Part shown: positions 14,738 through 24,786 of the stretch, in pieces
Position numbering within the stretch: position 1 is the first letter of the stretch
Layout: each line of letters begins with the position of its first letter
DNA from: Fistulifera solaris
Taxonomy: Eukaryota
Assembly (NCBI GenBank): GCA_030295235.1
Contig: AP026126.1
Coordinates: 1,550,001-1,614,000 of the forward strand
Direction of reading: 5' to 3'
Length of the DNA: 64,000 nucleotides
Translations under genes and position numbers: made by a program
The notes under the pieces: generated by a model
What the model was told of the DNA's origin: nothing
Database searches by the model: none
Seen by the model: only the letters and a program-made list of their open reading frames with translations

Positions 14738-16015
14738 TCACTCTATCTTTCGGGTGGAAATACCCGTCGGTGTAGGAGGAACGCGAAGGGTTCCCCAAAA
14801 TGCGTCACAAAACGTAAATATTTGCCCGTAGTTGTAGATGTAATGAGTGTGGTGCATCGTGTGATACTTCGATCCCATGATGGGGTCAATATTCCAATCC
14901 ATAGCATCATGGATGTAGGTCGCCCAGACCGCGGTGAAGAACAGCAATATCAAATGTGTGAGATAGTGGCAAGGGCAAACCAATCCTGCTAAAACATACG
15001 GCGATGCTTGAAGCATCCCATCCAATGGATGGAACGCAATACTCGCCCACGGCGTCAACGTTTCCGCTTTATTGTATTTGTGATGCGGCATATGGACATG
15101 CTTGTATAACCACTTGTTTGTATGCAGAGTTCGGTGAACCCAGTAAATACCAATTTCCACCATGGCCATGTAAAGCAGAAAGTAAAAAGCATACCAGCCC
15201 CAACCTCCGATCTCTTGCACCGTGAAGTAACTGGCGGTAAAGCCCTTTTCAATGAGAAATTCGTCAATCACGGGCAGCATGACATAGATAATCATACTGG
15301 TTTGCGCCATAACAATTTGATCCAGTATAGTCGCCAAAGAGGGACGCTTACGCTTCGCAAATATTTCCTCCGATATGGGATGAATGTAGCAAAAGTAGTG
15401 AAAGACCGAGGCCGTGCCATAGTAAACAATGATCCCCGCAATCAAGTTGCGTAAATAGCACAAAAGATAATGAGACCACTCCAATGAATTTGAAACATAA
15501 GGCACCAGCTCTTGGGTAAGTCGAGCGGAAAAGGCAGTGGGTAGGAAAATGGAATTGAGATAAGCATTTAGATTGCGGCAGGGCTGCTGGAGTGGCTCGT
15601 TGTCAAGGAATGCCGCGTAGATGGATGAATAGGAAACGCCATTGTGAATGAACTCTGTTTCGGGTGTCGCTATACGCTCTAACCATTTAACACCAGGAAA
15701 CGGAACTGATTATTGTCAACGAAAATGCATAGCATAAACGAAGGAAAAAGGCCAAAATTCCCAAAACAAAAACAGAATGTGAGAAAAGGTCGATGTAAAT
15801 TCCCGAAAAGTCGATCAGAATTCTTTTCAGTCCTAGATGCCTCGGATTCGCATTTCGCACATACCATCGGCCGGCAAATTCATCAAATCAGAGAGCCATG
15901 GTGTTACTTGGATGAGGTCGGCCAGTATATTCTGTTCAAACAAAGCTGCTGCGACAAGACTAGTTACACTGGCAAGCGTGAAAACCTGCAGTGATCGTCG
16001 AATGCGAATCATCAT
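14738..16015 (-). CDS. ERG3: Sterol C5-desaturase (ERG3/SC5D/DWF7-like fatty-acid hydroxylase family); intron 15706-15864
   Basis: His boxes HRTLH, HMPHH, HTMHH; TPWASIAFHPLDGMLQ; YNYGQ. Upstream exon 16015-15865 joins in phase 1 across a GTATGT...AATCAG intron. Confidence 0.88.
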
Positions 16016-16523
16016 GGTTTCACTTGGCAGTCAATGAACACCGAGTTCGGTTTCGGGTTGTTTCTTACAATGCCAATAGAGAAAGGGCGAGGCGTTGTGT
16101 TTAGTGCGAGTTGCGTGCGGTCGTGGTCCTGCGGTCCATGCTTGAATTCTGTGCGACCACGCCCCTCCACGGACGAAACGTCTTTCCGGCACTGATTGTT
16201 TAGAAGCGTGACCGAAATTGATTATCAACGGAAATGGTGCAATTCGATCATCCTTTGTGCAGCTACTACGTACCAACATTTGTGTCCTACCGGTGTGTCT
16301 TATAGTGCGTAAATAATAATAGTGTACACCCGACGAGAGGGGGAAAAGGATAGGGCTAAGAACTTTCTGTTCTGTTCCATTTCCGAGGTTCGCCGAAACG
16401 ACCGTCTCCGTTTCGGCAAAAAAAAGAAATCCGAGACACGAGACACCATTCCGTCATTGAAAGCAATTGTAGGGATTCTAATTCACCAATTTCGCTTTAC
16501 AACTCTTGATCGTAAGGCGGAAC

Positions 16524-17143
16524 ATGCGTGCACCAATGAAAACGTTTCTTGTTTGGAGCCCACTGCTCCTGTGCTTTGTTTTGAAGGCGCAAGCCTTTCA
16601 ACATTGTGGTTTCGTTCAAACTTTGAGAACTTTTTCGACGGCCCGGCCCGTGTCATTCACGGTTTCGGATCTTGAATTGGATGACTACCGTGATTATGAA
16701 ACAGTAAAAAGCCATCTGGTCCATTCGAAACATGCAGAACAAATTGCTGGGGTGTACAGAATTCTGAGCAAGACGCAATATGTAAACTTTTGACGTCGGT
16801 GGGAACGAACAAAATCGTTGTACTGAAAATATTCGCTCCTTGGTGCCGCGCTTGCAAGGCTCTGGCGCCCAAGTTCTCGCAAATAACCCAAGATGAGAAA
16901 TACAACAACAACTTGCCCATTGTTTGGGCCGAATTGAGTGTACAGTACAACAAAGAACTTGTCGTCGATGAACTCGCGGTAGACGCCCTTCCTACGGTAC
17001 AATTTTATGTGGATGGAAGACTCGAAGATAGCTTTGCGTGTGGGCCGACCAAGCGTGTGTTACTCAAGCGCAGACTCGCCCAGATGATCAATGCCAACGT
17101 CGACGCGCAAACACGACAACTTAAACTACGCTCCTCAGCCTAG
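16524..17143 (+). CDS. Plastid-targeted thioredoxin-like protein (WCRAC); apparent indel at T-run 16788-16791
   Basis: Signal peptide ending AQA-F plus transit-like segment; VVLKIFAPWCRACK; cis-Pro motif ALPTVQFY; FACGP. Confidence 0.8.
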
Positions 17144-17981
17144 TTGTTCACGCCCCTTTCAACTGCTATAGCAATTTACTTTTAGATTTTAAACTGACGA
17201 CCACGAAGCTTTTGTAGACTATTTGATTCATTTTGTGAGATCTTGAGTTCAATCGCCAGATTCATTTCAACCATTTTCTGTGATTTTAGCATCCCCTGCG
17301 GATAGTTTTATCGCACTCCTCTAGGTTAGACTTGCGCACAGATAGACGAGAGAGTCAAAAATTATCTTGATTTTCCGATGATTTCACTCCTGGCGACAAC
17401 TGTTCAAGTCACAGAAGGGTCAAAAACATAAAACCAGCTGTCGACGTCAGCATTGTGACCGTTGACCGTTGTGTCGCTTTGAAGATTTGAAGTAGGCATA
17501 CGGTACACAAACGACAATCGATCGAAGTCCACACTACTTTTGGTAGGATACTTGAGAGAGGAATGCTTTTCTTTACCCTAGCTGGTAGTACCCTTCCACG
17601 TAAGCAAGTAGGCTCACGTAGTACGATTAACGCATGGTGTTTCGGCAGACAGACGTGTTCGGGTACCGTTCACCCACGAAACAAGCACTCCTATTACCGG
17701 TACTCATACTGCGGAGTTGTTCGTGGAGGAGAGGCGAACGTTTAACCAAGAAGTCTTTTCCCTATTTTTTGGGCGATGCTTCACCTCCATCAGTCTCTCT
17801 CTTTGGCATTACCTCCAATCTTTGTTTCTCTTTGCTTTTCCAACGAAAGCTTGGCTGTACTTCATAGCGCGCCCTAAAGCCGTTCAAGGTGATCTATTGA
17901 TTTAAACGCACCTCTATCGGCCAAAGTTTCTCTTTGCAAAGCAACACAAATTGATCCTGTTGAAAAGACCGTTACAACAAT

Positions 17982-19960
17982 ATGCGTCTCGCTTGCTATT
18001 ATTCACTTTTGCTAGCAAGTACTTCCGTATGGTCTTTTTCGGTCACACGAAGTCCTGTATTCTCTGCTATCGCACCTCATCGCCCGCATTCTTTAACCTC
18101 GTCGTCCCTACATCCGTATACGTCATTGGCTGTCTCGACGTCGTCGCATCCGAGTTCGACGTTCGCTCCGGAACTGGGCAGTGACGGTCTGTTTCATTTA
18201 CAAAACAAAGAGCAGCATGCGGAGCTCATGAAATCAGTCGGACAGGACAAGATTGTCGTACTGAAAGTCTACGCTCCCTGGTGCCGAGCTTGTAAGGCTC
18301 TCGAAGCAAAATTTTTACAAGTTCGACACGACCCGAAATATAGTAACCTTCCAATTGTCTGGGCGGATTTAACAATTCAACACAACAAGGAATTTATCAA
18401 GCAGTTGGGTGTGCTGGCGTTACCTACGGTTCAGTTTTATGTACAGGGTCGTCTGATTGATACATTCGCTTGCGGTCCATCGAAAGTGCCGATATTGAAA
18501 CGTAAACTTGCTTCGACAGTCAATAAGCACGTCGATCCAGCTACGATGCAGTTGAAACCTTTAGATATGAGTGCAATAGAGCTATCATATCAAGAGGGCA
18601 GCTATGAGGGAGTTGATATGGACTCGGAGCAAGCAGACGACGTAACAGTGACGACTCCGGCAGCAACCAGTCCCAAGGCTTTGTTGAAATCACCCTACCG
18701 ACCTGCACCCGCGGCTTTTGCAAAAGTCGATCTCGATGCTGAACTATCAGCTGAAGATCGCAAACACATGGAATCAATCCCATACTTTTCGGAACTTTCT
18801 CTGGCAGATCGTGACGAGGTTGCGGAAAAAGCAACCCTGGTCACTTTTGCACCAGGCAGTATCATTCTCCGAGAAGGAACACCTGGCAATTCCTTCTATA
18901 TGCTCAGCTCAGGATCCGTGGAAATTTGTCAAGCTGCGACGTATTTATCTGATCCGCTCGTTTCACCACCTCCTTCCTATCTAGGAACGGTCATTAACGT
19001 TCTAGAAAATCCAGGAGACTACTTTGGCGAACGAGCCTTGCTAACTGGTGAGCCACGCGCTGCAAGTATTCGAGCAAGCGACCAAGAGACAAAAGTGTGG
19101 GTATGGGACAAAAGGATTTTCCAGCTAGTTCGGTTTTATCAGGACGAACAAAGTTCGCCTCAGCGCGCAACGTTTCAGTGGACGACAAGTACGGTCTCAG
19201 TGTCGTTTCGTTGCAATCCGATACCGCCGATTGGCAACAGCGTACTGTCAACGTTGCCAATCAGGTACGTGGAAGCACAAACTCGCCCTACATTATTCGC
19301 GGAGTAGATACAGATGATGATGTAGAATACGATGAAGAGGTGCTGACAAGCTCATCGAATGAATTTGCGGTGAAAAGAAGCGACGAAGTCATTTTGTCAC
19401 TGTTGTCGAAGTTCAAGATGGTGCGCTCGATACGCAATTGTTTGAACTATTTAGTTAAAACACGGGCGACCTGGGGTGATTCAGGGAATCGCATACGGCG
19501 CTCTTTGTTAGTGTCGCGACTGACGCCTGCACAGCGGGCCGAATTCGCGGAGGCTTTTGAATTTTCGGATGCCAACGGCGACGGGCAGATTGAACTGCAG
19601 GAATTGAAGCGAATTGTTTACAGCATGAACAGTGGAGAAGAGGGAGAAAACGAAGCATTGGACCAGGAATTGCAAGTCGCAATTGAAAGAAACAGCGCAG
19701 GACCGGCCGTGTTAGATTATACCGATTTTATGGGCATCATGGCAGAATCTGAATTTTACTTCCTTTTCAACGACATTTTTGCTTCGCTCGATACGAACAA
19801 TTCTGGTTATGTGAAAGCGATGGACCTCGATCGAGTACTATCTGGAGTCCGCGATCTGATCAGTGATGACCGAAACAGTATCATTGACGTGGAAGATCAA
19901 GACATGCTGATCGACTACGAGCAATTTACACGCATGTTACTAGGTACAAGTCTGCAATGA
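17982..19960 (+). CDS. Plastid-targeted multidomain protein: thioredoxin (WCRAC) + cyclic-nucleotide-binding domain + EF-hands; apparent 1-bp deletion at A-run 19110-19113
   Basis: Signal peptide ending VWS-F plus S/T-rich transit peptide; WCRAC at 18279-18293; cNMP domain IPYFSEL...IILREG..GNSFYMLSSGSVEI...GDYFGERALLTGEPRAASI; EF loops DANGDGQIELQE (19568) and DTNNSGYVKAMD (19790). Confidence 0.82.
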
Positions 19961-20405
19961 GGTACATGACGTATCGTGTTGAAGAACTACCACATCTTTG
20001 GCAATGAGGCACATGTCACATTTTCCCACTTAACAACGACGCACGCCGCTTGCAAACATTAATCAATACAAAGCGCTCTTTCATATCATCGAACGTCTTT
20101 GAATCTAGATAATTGGAACCATCAATGAGACCCGTAGGCCTCGGACTCGAAGGGAGTTAAGAAATACCGGTAGACGTAAATCCTTGGAACTGGGATGAAA
20201 TATTGAAACTTGGAACCCTTTCTCAGTACCGGAACGACGTGATGTCCTTTATTCATTCGTGTGCTTCGATGACGTATAGTCCAGTACTGTTTGCCCCCAG
20301 TGAAAAAGGACGCGAAATGAAGAAACAAACGTTTGCCTCGTTTTTGGGTTGCAACTTTTATTACAGTATTATTTATTTATTTGTCATTGATTACTTGTGA
20401 AACCG

Positions 20406-21155
20406 ATGAGCATCATGAAAGCATCATCTACAATTATTTGTCTCTACTTTCTAGTGGCACCTACTTCGTGGGCTTGGGTGAATCATCCCAAAACAGGCAG
20501 TCAAGTACCTGTAGTTCGATCGTCGTTCAACACGAAATCTTCCCCCACGCGCTTGAATGGATTCTTGGAAGACATTTTCAGCAAGGCGCAATCTTTCGGA
20601 AAGAAAAACGTCGTGGAAGCTATTGAACCTCCCCAATACGACCCTGTTACGATTGAACCTGACTTTCGTGTCGCGGCTTTGTTCTTAGGGTCTGGCATCC
20701 TCTTGGACACCATCCCTTACATTCAGTTGACGCTCGGCCCTCTTGTCACGCTTTTGGGACTCCTCTTTCTGGTGCAAACATTTCGCATTCGTTTTGTTCT
20801 TAATGAAGACAATGCTTTGGAACTACTAACCGTGAATCCCTTTACCGGCGAGACGAAGGATTCGGGAGAGAACGTCGTGGTGGGCGGAGCCAATGTTTGG
20901 GCGACTTCGTCAATTGTGAACTACGACTTCTTTCCTCCTATCGACAGTTCCCCAGTTGGACCTATTCTGGTGTATTTTAAGGAGACGCAAACACCTTCCG
21001 AAACTTGGAATCAAGGTCCTGGTGCCAAAGCCAATGATCCGGAGAAAATTGCGGCTGGCGAAGCTGTAGCTGGACAAGTGCATTTCTTCCCGGCCGTTTG
21101 CAAGTCAGAGCAGCTGCGGGACGAGTTTGTGAAGCGACAGGTTGCTAAGCTTTAG
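20406..21155 (+). CDS. Plastid membrane protein, DUF3119 family
   Basis: Bipartite presequence (SWA-W); two TM helices; LFLVQTFRIRF, GENVVVGGAN, PILVYFKETQT and GQVHFFP match my memory of the cyanobacterial/plastid DUF3119 family. Confidence 0.72.
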   Translation: MSIMKASSTIICLYFLVAPTSWAWVNHPKTGSQVPVVRSSFNTKSSPTRLNGFLEDIFSKAQSFGKKNVVEAIEPPQYDPVTIEPDFRVAALFLGSGILLDTIPYIQLTLGPLVTLLGLLFLVQTFRIRFVLNEDNALELLTVNPFTGETKDSGENVVVGGANVWATSSIVNYDFFPPIDSSPVGPILVYFKETQTPSETWNQGPGAKANDPEKIAAGEAVAGQVHFFPAVCKSEQLRDEFVKRQVAKL

Positions 21156-21553
21156 TTGAAAGGCATTGCGTCTATTTTCTTTAGAAGCTTTTTGGTGCGA
21201 ATGAATAGAACTAGGGTAAAATTGAATGGCGCACCGGTATCCATATTGAGTACTCAATACTATCTTGTATGCGATTTCGGAGAATTATGTCGTTTGATAA
21301 CTAATGCATCACATTTTGGACAGTGACGATTGTGAACCGGTTGCGTGGAAGTGACACTTTTCCAGCTGCCGGAGGGTTGCCAATGGTGGCGAAGGGAAGA
21401 TCCATCAAAAGGTTCTTCTTCTCTCTGTCGCGGTCGTGAAGATGCAATAACTGCGCTATTGCACTTTTTATAATCGCCCTGTTTCATTGCTGTTATCATC
21501 CATTCCGCACAAAGTGAATTTGATAAGCAAGCGACATAAGATTATTGCTCAAA

Positions 21554-24500
21554 ATGTCATCGGCACGCCAATTATTGACACACTTGTATCGATACCGCAG
21601 CAAGACATTATTGATACGAAGCACACAACGATGGAAGAGTAGTACGGCGGCTGCCACACTTCATGAGCATGAAACGTTTTTGACCGGAACCAGCTCACTC
21701 TATGCAGAGCAAATGTACGAATCGTATTTAAGTAATCCGGAGAATGTCTCACCCTCTTGGCGCAAGTACTTTGAAAACTTGGAATCGGGGGTGCCGTACA
21801 ATGCCTCCGATTTCTCTTCACCGACGGCCGCTACGCGCAGTAAAGCAGCCGTCACGCAACCAGCACCGGATTTAGGAGCCCCTTCCGATTCGTTGGGTGT
21901 GGCGCACTTGATTAGAGCCTATCAAGCGAACGGTCACATGGCCGCCCGCTTGGATCCTCTGGGCGTCCACGCCCCGGAAGCCTTTCCCTGTCGACCTTCT
22001 AATTTAATGGATCTGAGTCCCTACGGAGGATACCCTCCCGAGCTCACACCCGAGTATCACGGATTTACGGAAGCGGATTTGGATCGGAAAATGAATTTCC
22101 GCGGAACGAGTTCGGGAGGTAACAAAGGATACTTGGAAGATTTGGCGAATAGTCCCAACAAAGTGACGTTGCGAATGATTCTGAACGAGCTTCGAAAGAC
22201 CTATTGTGGTTCTCTTGGCGTGGAATATATTCATATCGGTAATCAGGACAAGATGAACTGGATTCGTGAGCGGATTGAGAACCCTCGTTGGAATAAGTAC
22301 GATAAGGAGAAGAAGCAACACATCTACGAACGACTGTGTTTTGCTGACTTTTTCGAAAATTTTCTGGCTCAAAAATTCAACACGACAAAGCGCTTTGGTC
22401 TCGATGGTGGAGAAGCTATTGTGCCGGGTTTGAAGGACGCAATTGATCGTGCCAGTGAATTGGGCGCGCATTCATTCGTCATCGGTATGCCTCATCGTGG
22501 TCGATTAAATGTGCTCGCCAACGTCATGCGCAAGCCCATGCCCTTGATCTTTTCCGAGTTCCAAGGGACGCATTACGATGTGAAAGATCATTTTGATGAT
22601 AGCGACAAAGAACGCACATGGGGAATTTCAGGAGATGTCAAGTATCACTTGGGTTCGTCCATGGATCGCACCTATCCCGACGGTCGTAAGATTCATTTGA
22701 GCTTGGTTGCAAATCCATCACATTTGGAATGTGTGAATCCGGTTGTAAGTATTGATGAAGACTGCCAGTCTGGCGTTAAGAATTGTTTCAAGATGATCAT
22801 CTTATACTATTTCATCAATAGGTGGCAGGAAAAACGCGTGCGAAGCAATACTATTGCGGTAACACGGCTGATGATAAGAGAAATTGCGTTCCTATTCTTC
22901 TGCACGGTGATGCGGCGTTTGCGGGACAAGGAGTTGTGTATGAGACAATGCAGCTTGCGAATGTTCCTGACTTTAACGTTGGAGGCACGATTCACGTCGT
23001 TGTTAACAATCAGATTGGTTTTACCACCAATCCTGTTCATTCGAGAAGTACGCCTTACTGCTCAGATATTGGCAAAGCTTTCGGCTGTCCTATCTTTCAT
23101 TGCAATGGAGATGATCCACTAGCAGTGTCGGCTGCTCTTGAAACGGCAGTTGAGTATCGCCATGAATGGGGAGGCGATGTCATCATCGACATGATCTGTT
23201 ACCGACGAAATGGACACAACGAATTGGATCAACCTGCATTCACTCAGCCAAAACTCTATCAAGCGATTTCAAAGCACCCCTCAACATTGAAAATTTTCGA
23301 AAAGAAACTGCTCGATGAAGGTACACTTACTCAGGAAGAATGTGATGAGATCAAGAAGTACGTTCAAGACAACTACGAGAAAGATTTCGAAGCCAGCAAG
23401 ACATACCGCAAGAGCGAAACTGACTGGTTAAGTAGCCGCTGGTCTGGATTCAAGGGACCTTCGCAGCTAAGTCGTATTCGTCAAACTGGAGTTGAAATTG
23501 AAACGCTACGAAAGATTGGTATTGGTGCTGGAACCGTTCCGGAAGGATTTAAGCTCCATAGACAAATGGAAAAGATCTTTAAAGCCCGACGAGAAATGGC
23601 AGAGAAAGGCGAAGGAATCGACTGGGGCACTGCGGAAGCTATGGCTTTTGGATCTCTGCTTATCGAAGGCAACCATGTCCGGATTACCGGGCAAGATGTG
23701 CAGCGTGGTACATTTAGTCACCGTCACGCAGTCGTGATAGATCAAAAGACCGAGCAAGAGTATGCCCCTTTGAATCACTTGGCACAGGAGACGGACCCAG
23801 GTGCACCGATGGAGGTTTTATCTAGAAAGGACACGCAGGCTGGGTTCACATGCCGAAACTCTATTCTCAGTGAATTTGCTGTCCTTGGTTTCGAGCATGG
23901 ATACAGTCTTGAAAACCCAAATGCTTTGATTCTATGGGAAGCCCAGTTTGGTGACTTTGTAAATGGTGCCCAAGTCATGATTGATCAGTTCATCAGTGCG
24001 GGTGAAGATAAGTGGTTGCGTCAAAGCGGCCTCGTGATGCTACTTCCTCATGGGTACGACGGACAAGGGGCAGAACATTCGTCCTGTCGCCTAGAGCGCT
24101 TTCTGCAGCAAGTCGATGAAGACATCCATTATGTTCCTCGCCTAGCTCATGATGAACGCATGCAAATCCAGCGATGCAACTGGCAAGTTGTAAACTGCAC
24201 GACGCCAGCCAACTATTTTCACGTCCTTCGTCGTCAAATCCATCGTGATTTCCGCAAGCCACTCATTGTAGCAGCGCCCAAGAACCTGCTGCGCCACAAG
24301 CGTTGCGTGAGTACGTTAGAGGATATGGGACCTGGAACCATGTTCCGATATGTATACGACGAAGTTGATGAGTCCATCAACGCGAATGCTGAAAATGTTA
24401 CCAAAGTTGTATTCTGTACCGGTCAGATCTACTATGAGCTATTGGCAGAGAGAGAAAACCGTGGGGTGAATGACGTGGCTCTTGTCCGTATAGAGCAATT

Positions 24501-24786
24501 GGCCCCATTCCCATTTGACCATGTTGCAGAGAACGTCAAACGTTATCCCAATGCGGAGGTTGTATGGGCGCAACATGAGCCTAAAAACATGGGTGCTTAC
24601 AACTATTGCAATCCACGCATCATGACTGCGACGCGAGTGTTGAATGAGAATGAAAAGCGAGCTCGATATGTAGGTCGAAAAGTCAGCGCTGCACCGGCAA
24701 CCGGTATGACTAAGATCCACCAGATGGAGCACCAAGCCATTCTTAACGGCGTATTCGGAGAGAAAAATGCCACCGATAAGATGTAG
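21554..24786 (+). CDS. OGDH: 2-oxoglutarate dehydrogenase E1 component, mitochondrial; intron 22745-22821
   Basis: Mitochondrial presequence; KRFGLDGGE, GMPHRGRLNVL, GDVKYHLG, ANPSHLE, HGDAAFAGQG (TPP-binding), WEAQFGDF, LLPHGYDGQGAEHSS. Confidence 0.97.

Follow-up and report, generated by a model that had tools for sequence, protein, structure and literature searches.

A Fistulifera solaris gene joining a thioredoxin, a cyclic-nucleotide-binding domain and calmodulin-like EF-hands represents a large ochrophyte family with predicted plastid targeting

Does a frame break in a genome assembly separate two genes, or does it hide a single protein of unusual architecture? This question is raised by a locus in the diatom Fistulifera solaris, located in a stretch of 64,000 nucleotides (assembly GCA_030295235.1, contig AP026126.1, positions 1,550,001 to 1,614,000 of the forward strand; hereafter the window, in whose own numbering all positions are given). 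Two open reading frames (ORFs) lie there on the plus strand in different frames, one encoding 441 amino acids (aa; 17982..19307, with its ATG at 17982) and the other 285 aa (19103..19960). A preliminary description of the window, made from the letters alone, had read them as one protein consisting of a presequence, a thioredoxin (Trx) domain, a cyclic-nucleotide-binding (CNB) domain and a calmodulin-like C-terminus. Here we show that the locus is one intact, intronless nuclear gene whose product has already been deposited as a hypothetical protein and is functionally unstudied, and that this protein is not a one-off but belongs to a large family; the integrity of the gene, the identity of its domains, the constraint on ligand and catalytic residues and the phyletic spread are all directly observed. 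As the best explanation of these findings we propose, with somewhat more confidence than doubt, that the intact gene encodes a plastid-targeted thioredoxin gated by Ca2+ and a cyclic nucleotide.

The best database match of the first ORF is GAX19322.1, a 659-aa protein of Fistulifera solaris entered as 'hypothetical protein FisN_4Lh098'. A script comparison found residues 1-377 of this protein to equal the upstream frame of the window and residues 378-659 the downstream frame, with zero differences; across the join it reads ...W-D-K-K-D-F-P..., matching a repair by one A. Four public sequencing runs of one study, stored as contigs and guessed to be RNA, were compared with the window over 17900-20050. 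An additional A behind 19109 is present in all contigs of 4/4 runs, the depth with the extra A being equal to the total depth, and no joint of the kind an intron would leave was found in the contigs of the four runs over that interval, which confirms a single ORF from reads. Over 18860-19246 the contigs are of two kinds, with 0 and 25 mismatches to the window, each placing 388 letters across 387 window positions and each carrying the extra A. The 25-mismatch kind fits a second gene copy, GAX24580.1 (FisN_4Hh098, 658 aa). Of the differences between the copies, 31 of the 40 listed (82 more are unlisted) affect the third base of a codon, before the break as well as after it, with each side read in its own frame. 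The identity of this homeologue to GAX19322.1 amounts to 127/131 in the Trx domain, 131/131 in the CNB domain, 34/34 in the junction helix, 158/159 in the EF-hand domain and 50/59 in the presequence. The residues past the join are conserved among relatives (F380 92/99, P381 98/99 and L386 99/99, within the motif F-P-x-S-S-x-L-S-G); here and below, conservation counts refer to an alignment of 99 relatives, taken from 120 listed matches after 21 short, partial or near-duplicate rows had been omitted. Because the extra A occurs in all contigs and both frames equal GAX19322.1, the frame break results from the assembly undercalling a homopolymer and marks neither a pseudogene nor a gene boundary, and the CNB and EF-hand parts join on restoring one A at 19110-19113, just as had been proposed from the letters. 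An intron with a splice donor GTACGT at 19265 was also considered; it was rejected, since the reads have no joint and GAX19322.1 and all relatives read through the A run.

A search with the first ORF returned 312 proteins at E <= 0.001 among 8000 scored candidates, and about 111 of the 120 listed have Pfam matches to Trx, cyclic nucleoside monophosphate (cNMP) and EF-hand domains. With a centric-diatom member (P0105) as query, 518 proteins were returned, and all three domains are present in 119 of the 120 listed (both domain counts are our own, made from the listed tables). The sources include the pennate diatoms Amphora, Nitzschia, Pseudo-nitzschia, Cylindrotheca, Epithemia and Mayamaea as well as the centric diatoms Extubocellulus, Eucampia, Skeletonema, Cyclotella, Cyclostephanos, Thalassiosira, Conticribra and Chaetoceros. 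All named sources in both family searches are diatoms, save Durinskia (P0063) and one transcript labelled Alexandrium (P0184). Durinskia is a dinoflagellate with a diatom endosymbiont, and its family member fits an origin from that endosymbiont. The transcript labelled Alexandrium tamarense shares 56% identity with a protein from a centric diatom, and its source may be diatom material contaminating a dinoflagellate transcriptome. When 1.84 billion cluster representatives were scanned exhaustively without a profile, 80 were retrieved at E <= 1e-30, and ten more distant representatives that were looked up include two non-diatoms, the dictyochophyte Octactis speculum (P0297) and Pelagophyceae sp. 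CCMP2097 (KAJ1454801.1, P0395). Pfam Trx, cNMP and EF-hand domains are found in these two and in two further relatives. As the three-domain set, for which the preliminary description had proposed an architecture search across ochrophytes, is present in pennate and centric diatoms, a pelagophyte and a dictyochophyte, the architecture is old within this group.

The uniqueness implied by the preliminary description was thus overstated, the same protein having been deposited (GAX19322.1) and the architecture being shared by diatoms with two or more further classes of ochrophytes. Its statement that no characterised protein of this architecture is known agrees with our literature search, which turned up none: no paper on this architecture, its accessions or the WCRAC/WCKAC motif was found, with most subscription journals and several supplements lying outside the scope of the search. 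In the databases, relatives of the family are automatically named 'calmodulin' or 'cyclic nucleotide-binding protein', and GAX19322.1 was deposited without a function. Taken as a whole, that description stands with respect to the single ORF, the three intact domains under strong constraint and the presequence, but it overstates the uniqueness and is not supported with respect to a hinge helix that it placed at the join.

What could such a protein do? From its domains we infer localisation, ligand binding, the direction of control and a set of targets as follows. The mature protein would act as a 'sensor-responder', with an atypical WC[R/K]AC thioredoxin as output and two inputs in the same chain, the CNB domain and the calmodulin-like domain behind its basic helix. 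Ca2+ would bind chiefly to EF-hand 1 and alter the packing of the helix and EF-hand module on the Trx domain, in the manner of calredoxin and of the activation domain of calcium-dependent protein kinases (CDPK). Cyclic AMP (cAMP) or cyclic GMP (cGMP) would bind the phosphate-binding cassette and shift the conserved segment behind the CNB domain. Together, Ca2+ and the cyclic nucleotide would set the thiol-disulfide exchange activity of the thioredoxin or its choice of targets.

The closest characterised analogue, and the best functional model, is calredoxin (CRX) of Chlamydomonas reinhardtii. In this alga's protein, Ca2+ binding switches Trx activity via contacts between the calmodulin (CaM) and Trx domains (PMC4911631, PMC10602609), Ca2+ on the CaM part enabling Trx activity by an inter-domain path (PMC4911631, PMC13351737). 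Calredoxin unites EF-hands and Trx in one chloroplast polypeptide; in the Fistulifera protein both likewise reside in one chain, for which a chloroplast location is predicted. The domain order, however, is reversed: CRX runs from CaM to Trx (Ca ligands at 123-163 and active-site Cys 238 and 241; PMC4911631), whereas here the order is Trx, CNB, EF-hands. Moreover, CRX is without a CNB domain, and the active site here is WC[R/K]AC. The 60 best solved sequences shown for the Trx part and those shown for the EF-hand part do not include CRX, a search result from which alone no inference is drawn. Given the reversed order, the extra domain and the absence of CRX among the 60 solved sequences shown, we do not consider the protein a calredoxin; it is likely an independent fusion and not a CRX orthologue, one that by analogy may work most like calredoxin with a second input.

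The proposed output domain is well defined. Pfam Thioredoxin (PF00085) matches aa 80-163 with E 8.5e-12 and 45.4 bits against a cut-off of 23.5, and the intact CxxC thioredoxin with WCRAC of the preliminary description could be located within it. A98, P99, W100, C101, A103, C104 and the cis-proline P148 are each conserved in 99/99 relatives, and position 102 is occupied by R in 65 relatives and by K in the other 34. The nearest solved sequences are PDI-family a-type domains (3idv_A, E 4.1e-12), with Y-A-P-W-C-x-x-C-K in common; Arabidopsis Trx-like 2-1 (6lyx_A) is matched at E 9.4e-08 in the same kind of search. Common to all of them are the Trx fold and CxxC, the A-P-W-C-x-x-C-K frame being shared with PDI. 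In contrast to PDI and the atypical plastid thioredoxins, the Fistulifera domain has an R/K-A dipeptide in place of G-H or R-K, a lysine at the buried Glu/Asp and an invariant third cysteine. For the Trx subfamily no stand-alone named relative outside the group was found, all 13 matches among 21 candidates falling within it. According to a 2020 review, most diatom thioredoxins have WCGPC and few of their targets are known (PMC7378808). Beyond the active site, cysteines are conserved at C164 (99/99), C316 (88/99; 18927-18929) and C487 (96/99; 19439-19441), and the columns of residues 372 and 621 hold Cys in 79 and 77 of the 99 relatives and another residue in GAX19322.1. These extra cysteines hint at intramolecular redox chemistry.

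The C-terminal module has the make-up of a calcium sensor preceded by a helix. In the second ORF, Pfam EF-hand_1 (PF00036) matches aa 147-174 (E 3.7e-10, 39 bits against a cut-off of 25.4) and EF-hand_7, likewise beyond its curated cut-off, matches two stretches (E 2.5e-07), and the domain aligns across the whole of calmodulin (residues 13-167, E 1.8e-11). Four helix-loop-helix units, forming two pairs, are seen in a model of residues 440-659. The calmodulin-like C-terminus with one canonical and one near-canonical EF loop that had been described is borne out by EF-hands 1 and 3; in the latter, relatives have D at position 1 in 98/99 and G at position 6 in 97/99, with D in 80 and E in 17 at position 12. 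An acidic disordered stretch precedes the basic junction helix, which is conserved in the non-diatom members as well. Among 48,161 solved chains, the one that best matches the C-terminal module in structure is 3khe_B, a Ca-loaded calmodulin-like domain from a Toxoplasma CDPK (Z 7.8, root-mean-square deviation 3.7, 112 aligned residues), and the activation domain of a Plasmodium CDPK (3pm8_B) is matched with Z 5.9. As in these activation domains (3khe, 3pm8), a long helix leads into four EF-hand motifs; unlike in CDPK, there is no kinase family among the Pfam matches, and EF-hand 1 alone is canonical across the family. A comparison with the ESM Atlas gave no usable match by features, and the structures returned by query were all below a template modelling (TM) score of 0.36.

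Several observations weigh against a thioredoxin gated by the two messengers and have to be set beside the evidence above. In the full-length AlphaFold model the domains are confident (mean predicted local distance difference test, pLDDT, 78.8), yet a predicted TM score (pTM) of 0.41 means that their packing is not; residues 440-659 modelled alone reach pLDDT 84.5 and pTM 0.76. A complex prediction of the Trx domain (60-195) with the helix and EF-hands (466-659) and 2 Ca scored 0.53, compared to 0.02 for the best of 3 controls, with runs agreeing in at least 94% of contacts and a partner pLDDT of at least 70. The mark was reached in calibration by 51/78 solved complexes and 2/108 mismatched pairs, but scores of 0.60 or lower were those of 5 of these 78 solved complexes and of all 4 passing mismatches (of 180), and the calibration, unlike our job, had no ligand. 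Because a like complex, that of calredoxin, has already been solved, the pass may moreover echo that known structure, and the model lends a contact between Trx and the helix and EF-hand module weak support. Canonical ligands are conserved in EF-hand 1 alone: position 3 of EF-hand 3 is K, Q, R or Y in many relatives, and EF-hands 2 and 4 are non-canonical. The CDPK match, with Z 7.8, lies under about 8, a range in which a common arrangement can suffice. The Trx domain itself has an invariant K95 (99/99) opposite the Glu of PDI 3idv_A. Thioredoxins have a buried Asp at the position aligned with K95, so that an acidic residue is missing where it was looked for, and with a Lys at the buried-acid position the thioredoxin is atypical and ordinary reductase chemistry is not assured. 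To our knowledge, cyclic nucleotides have not been established inside the plastid stroma, and the literature search described above turned up no localisation, binding or activity study of any family member. Finally, the four runs with the fifth A stem from a single study and are possibly the source data of the deposited protein.

Some of these points would be accommodated if control were reversed or gating absent, the Trx fold serving as a redox sensor or dedicated oxidase whose state affects how Ca2+ or cNMP is bound or how partners are recruited, or one partner complex being served by the three domains with a function each. The conserved cysteines beyond the active site, the replacement of the buried acid by K95 and the lack of confident packing in the AlphaFold model speak for this, as does the closeness of the Trx domain to PDI a-type domains, its best solved relatives, which act as oxidases and isomerases. 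Against it, none of the relatives departs from the CxxC, cis-Pro and W of active thioredoxins; the cysteines in columns 372 and 621 are missing from GAX19322.1 itself; and calredoxin provides a precedent in which Ca2+ controls Trx (PMC4911631). We thus consider reversed or absent control improbable, although the PDI-like frame, the lysine at the buried acid and the extra cysteines would leave room for an oxidising or sensing role of the thioredoxin.

The second input of the proposed gated thioredoxin rests on the CNB domain. Pfam cNMP_binding (PF00027) covers aa 287-381 with E 4.7e-15 and 55.8 bits against a cut-off of 27.5, and the complete phosphate-binding cassette that the preliminary description had recognised lies at 19023-19073. 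Within it F348, G349, E350, R351, E357 and A361 are each conserved in 99/99, R359 in 95/99, A360 in 96/99 and S362 in 98/99 relatives. We take G349, E350, R351, R359 and A361 to be the positions that hold ribose and phosphate in PKA. The nearest solved sequences are apicomplexan PKG (E 1.3e-19) and PKA-R (about 2e-15). Foldseek with the whole model matched CNB domains alone (best E 2.1e-09, TM normalised to the target 0.6-0.8 to PKG/PKA), the best 49 rows being nearly all PKG, PKA-R, HCN or CRP-type CNB domains. R-A-A as a mark of cAMP is a rule of thumb with known exceptions, and alongside the R-A-A cassette the nearest solved CNB relatives in the sequence search include both PKG and PKA-R.

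With the CNB domains of PKA-R and PKG (4rz7, 1rgs, 4ku8) the domain has in common the fold and the G-E ... R-A cassette (E 1.3e-19 to 2e-15). It differs from them in being a single CNB domain, in lacking a kinase, dimerisation or inhibitor segment and in a diatom-specific insertion inside the barrel, which comprises 15-20 aa and is modelled with low confidence (pLDDT 61 for residues 321-330). As it is without kinase or docking parts, the protein is neither a PKA-R, a PKG nor a CDPK. Behind the barrel, where PKA-R and PKG have a clear B/C helix lid, the model is mostly non-helical: the hinge helix that the one-A join had been thought to complete is reduced in the AlphaFold model to 3-residue helical turns at 377-379 and 385-387. 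The segment that follows (380-445; pLDDT 60-80) is nonetheless conserved, with L386, Y404, R430, G431 and S432 invariant in the 99 relatives, and its motifs are missing from the pelagophyte and dictyochophyte members. Outside the diatoms the cassette itself varies, reading R-W-C in the Octactis member (P0297) and R-V-V in one MMETSP member (P0302), both with intact Trx and EF-hand parts; on the evidence of these sequences, ligand binding may have been lost or changed there.

These divergent cassettes, together with the low-confidence barrel insertion and the fact that CNB folds of some families bind other ligands, would be expected if the domain were not a cAMP or cGMP receptor at all and instead bound another ligand or served as a structural or dimerisation module alone. 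We hold this to be unlikely, since in diatoms the presumed ribose- and phosphate-holding residues are almost invariant and the domain matches the cGMP- and cAMP-binding domains of PKG and PKA-R at E 1e-19 to 1e-15.

A plastid location of the gated thioredoxin was proposed on the basis of a bipartite, ASAFAP-type presequence with the cleavage motif VWS-F. We assessed this motif across the family with a heuristic of our own rather than with SignalP or ASAFind. Starting from 235 proteins, 231 have the active-site motif, 130 of these begin with M and carry 45 or more residues before the mature domain, and 118 of these have a hydrophobic core. A small-x-small pattern followed by F, W or Y occurs after the hydrophobic core in 113/118 of these complete N-termini (91 F, 12 W, 10 Y), as compared to a mean of 55.3 and a maximum of 70 in shuffles, in agreement with the presequence as proposed. 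The transit-like stretch that follows has a median length of 63 aa in relatives, with median fractions of 0.27 for S+T, 0.09 for D+E and 0.08 for K+R and hence about neutral charge, the cut being crude and possibly including mature residues. In the ASAFind paper, F at +1 is described as crucial for import into diatom plastids (PMC4329603). Judged from these sequence features, the bipartite presequence most likely takes the precursor into the plastid stroma.

A signal-peptide-like N-terminus would also be carried by a PDI-like Ca2+-binding oxidoreductase of the endoplasmic reticulum (ER), the chloroplast ER lumen or the periplastidal compartment. Such a location would suit a Trx domain whose nearest relatives are PDI-family a domains with the same Y/F-A-P-W-C-x-x-C-K frame, and EF-hand proteins are common in the Ca2+-rich ER. 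However, the C-terminus ...LLGTSLQ has no KDEL-type signal, an S/T-rich, low-acid stretch with a median of 63 aa follows the signal-like part, and a cNMP sensor in the secretory lumen would be stranger still. The aromatic +1 residue in 113/118 relatives, a feature considered crucial for plastid import by the ASAFind authors (PMC4329603), likewise argues against it, and we accord a non-stromal protein only a small chance. In the first half (2.0 of 4.0 million characters) of the supplement to a Thalassiosira plastid-fraction proteome (PMC6683858), the active-site motif did not turn up, and no inference is drawn from this.

Directly upstream of the fusion gene lies a stand-alone thioredoxin on the same strand. 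It has its own signal-like N-terminus, ending ...KAQA and followed by F, an A-P-W-C-R-A-C-K frame and the motif F-A-C-G-P-T-K, and is identical to the Trx domain of the fusion at 69/110 positions. A run of 4 T at 16788-16791 splits it into ORFs 16482..16793 and 16700..17143, through which the relatives P0243 and P0244 read as if there were 5 T. Two homopolymer shifts within 2.4 kb thus suggest systematic homopolymer undercalls in the assembly. A real frameshift, leaving two genes (a Trx-CNB protein and an EF-hand protein starting from M at 19103) or a fresh pseudogene, could point to the 4 A of the window, to both partial ORFs being open and to a few database entries with Trx and CNB alone (e.g. 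P0008, P0099), but it is already largely refuted and extremely improbable in view of 5 A in every contig of 4/4 runs, one of them identical to the window over 388 bases otherwise, a deposited genome-derived protein that reads through, the conserved F-P-x-S-S-x-L-S-G spanning the join and the second shift 2.3 kb upstream, which points to a systematic assembly error. In a tree of 44 hand-picked Trx domains over 115 columns, a short alignment that leaves the deeper forks open, a branch with support 100/99 separates the four non-diatom fusions from all other domains, and the stand-alone group of five (96/87) is found among the pennate fusion domains. This placement suggests that the stand-alone thioredoxin arose as a partial tandem duplicate of the fusion gene.

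Three further genes were noted in the neighbourhood. Next downstream, a gene on the plus strand (20406-21155) encodes a DUF3119 protein (E 4.7e-19) whose hydrophobic N-terminus ends ...TSWA followed by W, and which may be another plastid-targeted protein. The ORF at 14738-15709 on the minus strand encodes a fatty acid hydroxylase domain (PF04116, E 1.6e-21). A 2-oxoglutarate dehydrogenase E1 gene at 21527-24786 on the plus strand is in two overlapping frames, homology to human OGDH ending at residue 257 in one frame and restarting at 257 in the other; an assembly error was rejected as the cause of this gap, which is a 77-base GTAAGT...AG intron at 22745-22821. The coordinates of the fusion gene, its parts and the adjacent thioredoxin are collected in Table 1.

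Table 1. Positions in the window of the Trx-CNB-EF-hand gene, its predicted parts and the stand-alone thioredoxin upstream of it.
Feature	Position	Strand	Remarks
Whole coding sequence of the 659-aa Trx-CNB-EF-hand protein	17982..19960	+	intronless; stop 19958-19960; window one A short
Signal-peptide-like N-terminus, aa 1-18	17982..18035	+	hydrophobic, ends ...SVWS, F19 at +1; by heuristic
Transit-peptide-like stretch, aa 19-59	18036..18158	+	S/T-rich, poorly conserved, pLDDT <50 (modelled disordered)
Thioredoxin-fold domain, aa 60-190	18159..18551	+	PF00085; pLDDT 88-97 per 10-residue block
Active-site motif W-C-R-A-C (C101, C104)	18279..18293	+	conserved in relatives
Third cysteine C164 in F-x-C-G-P-S-K	18471..18473	+	invariant, 99/99
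Variable disordered linker, aa 191-249	18552..18728	+	pLDDT <50 at 202-232 and 236-242
CNB domain, aa 250-380	18729..19120	+	PF00027; PKG and PKA-R similarity
Phosphate-binding cassette F-G-E-R-A-L-L-T-G-E-P-R-A-A-S-I-R, aa 348-364, FGERALLTGEPRAASIR	19023..19073	+	almost invariant
A run, apparent frameshift	19110..19113	+	4 A in window, 5 A in reads
Diatom-specific conserved segment, aa 380-445	19118..19315	+	F-P-x-S-S-x-L-S-G, N-D-K-Y-G, R-G-S-x-N-x-P, G-V-D
Long basic amphipathic 'junction' helix, aa 467-494, with C487	19379..19462	+	modelled helix, pLDDT about 90
Calmodulin-like domain, four EF-hand motifs, aa 501-659	19481..19957	+	Pfam, calmodulin alignment, model
EF-hand 1 loop DANGDGQIELQE	19568..19603	+	canonical; D1 and E12 99/99
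EF-hand 3 loop DTNNSGYVKAMD	19790..19825	+	near-canonical; D instead of E at position 12
EF-hand 4 loop	19886..19921	+	conserved, non-canonical, D/E at position 6
Tandem stand-alone thioredoxin, about 206 aa	16524..17143	+	directly upstream, same strand as fusion gene

For the biology of diatoms, a conserved and probably plastid-targeted protein that joins two messenger sensors to a thioredoxin is a concrete candidate ready for knock-out, and its stand-alone neighbour, a paralogue without the sensor modules, provides a natural control. A 2024 paper reports stromal Ca2+ signals in diatom plastids under high light and oxidative stress, for which few decoders have been named, and gives as EF-hand candidates KEA3 and DSP proteins, not the Trx-CNB-EF family (PMC11663583). 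The 2020 review describes cAMP as the signal through which the CO2 level is conveyed to gene expression in diatoms, and two carbonic anhydrases of the pyrenoid as being regulated by thioredoxins (PMC7378808). That a cyclic-nucleotide-binding protein carries a conserved presequence of plastid type is notable in itself. As a tentative extension, to which we attach distinctly less weight than to the gated thioredoxin as such, ochrophyte plastids might possess a dedicated cyclic-nucleotide receptor, and the protein might be a stromal effector of cAMP or cGMP, the first to become known, which would read cyclic nucleotide, stromal Ca2+ and thiol redox state within a single chain and pass the outcome on by disulfide exchange to photosynthetic or carbon-concentrating targets. 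If this were true, cyclic-nucleotide signalling would operate inside a secondary plastid.

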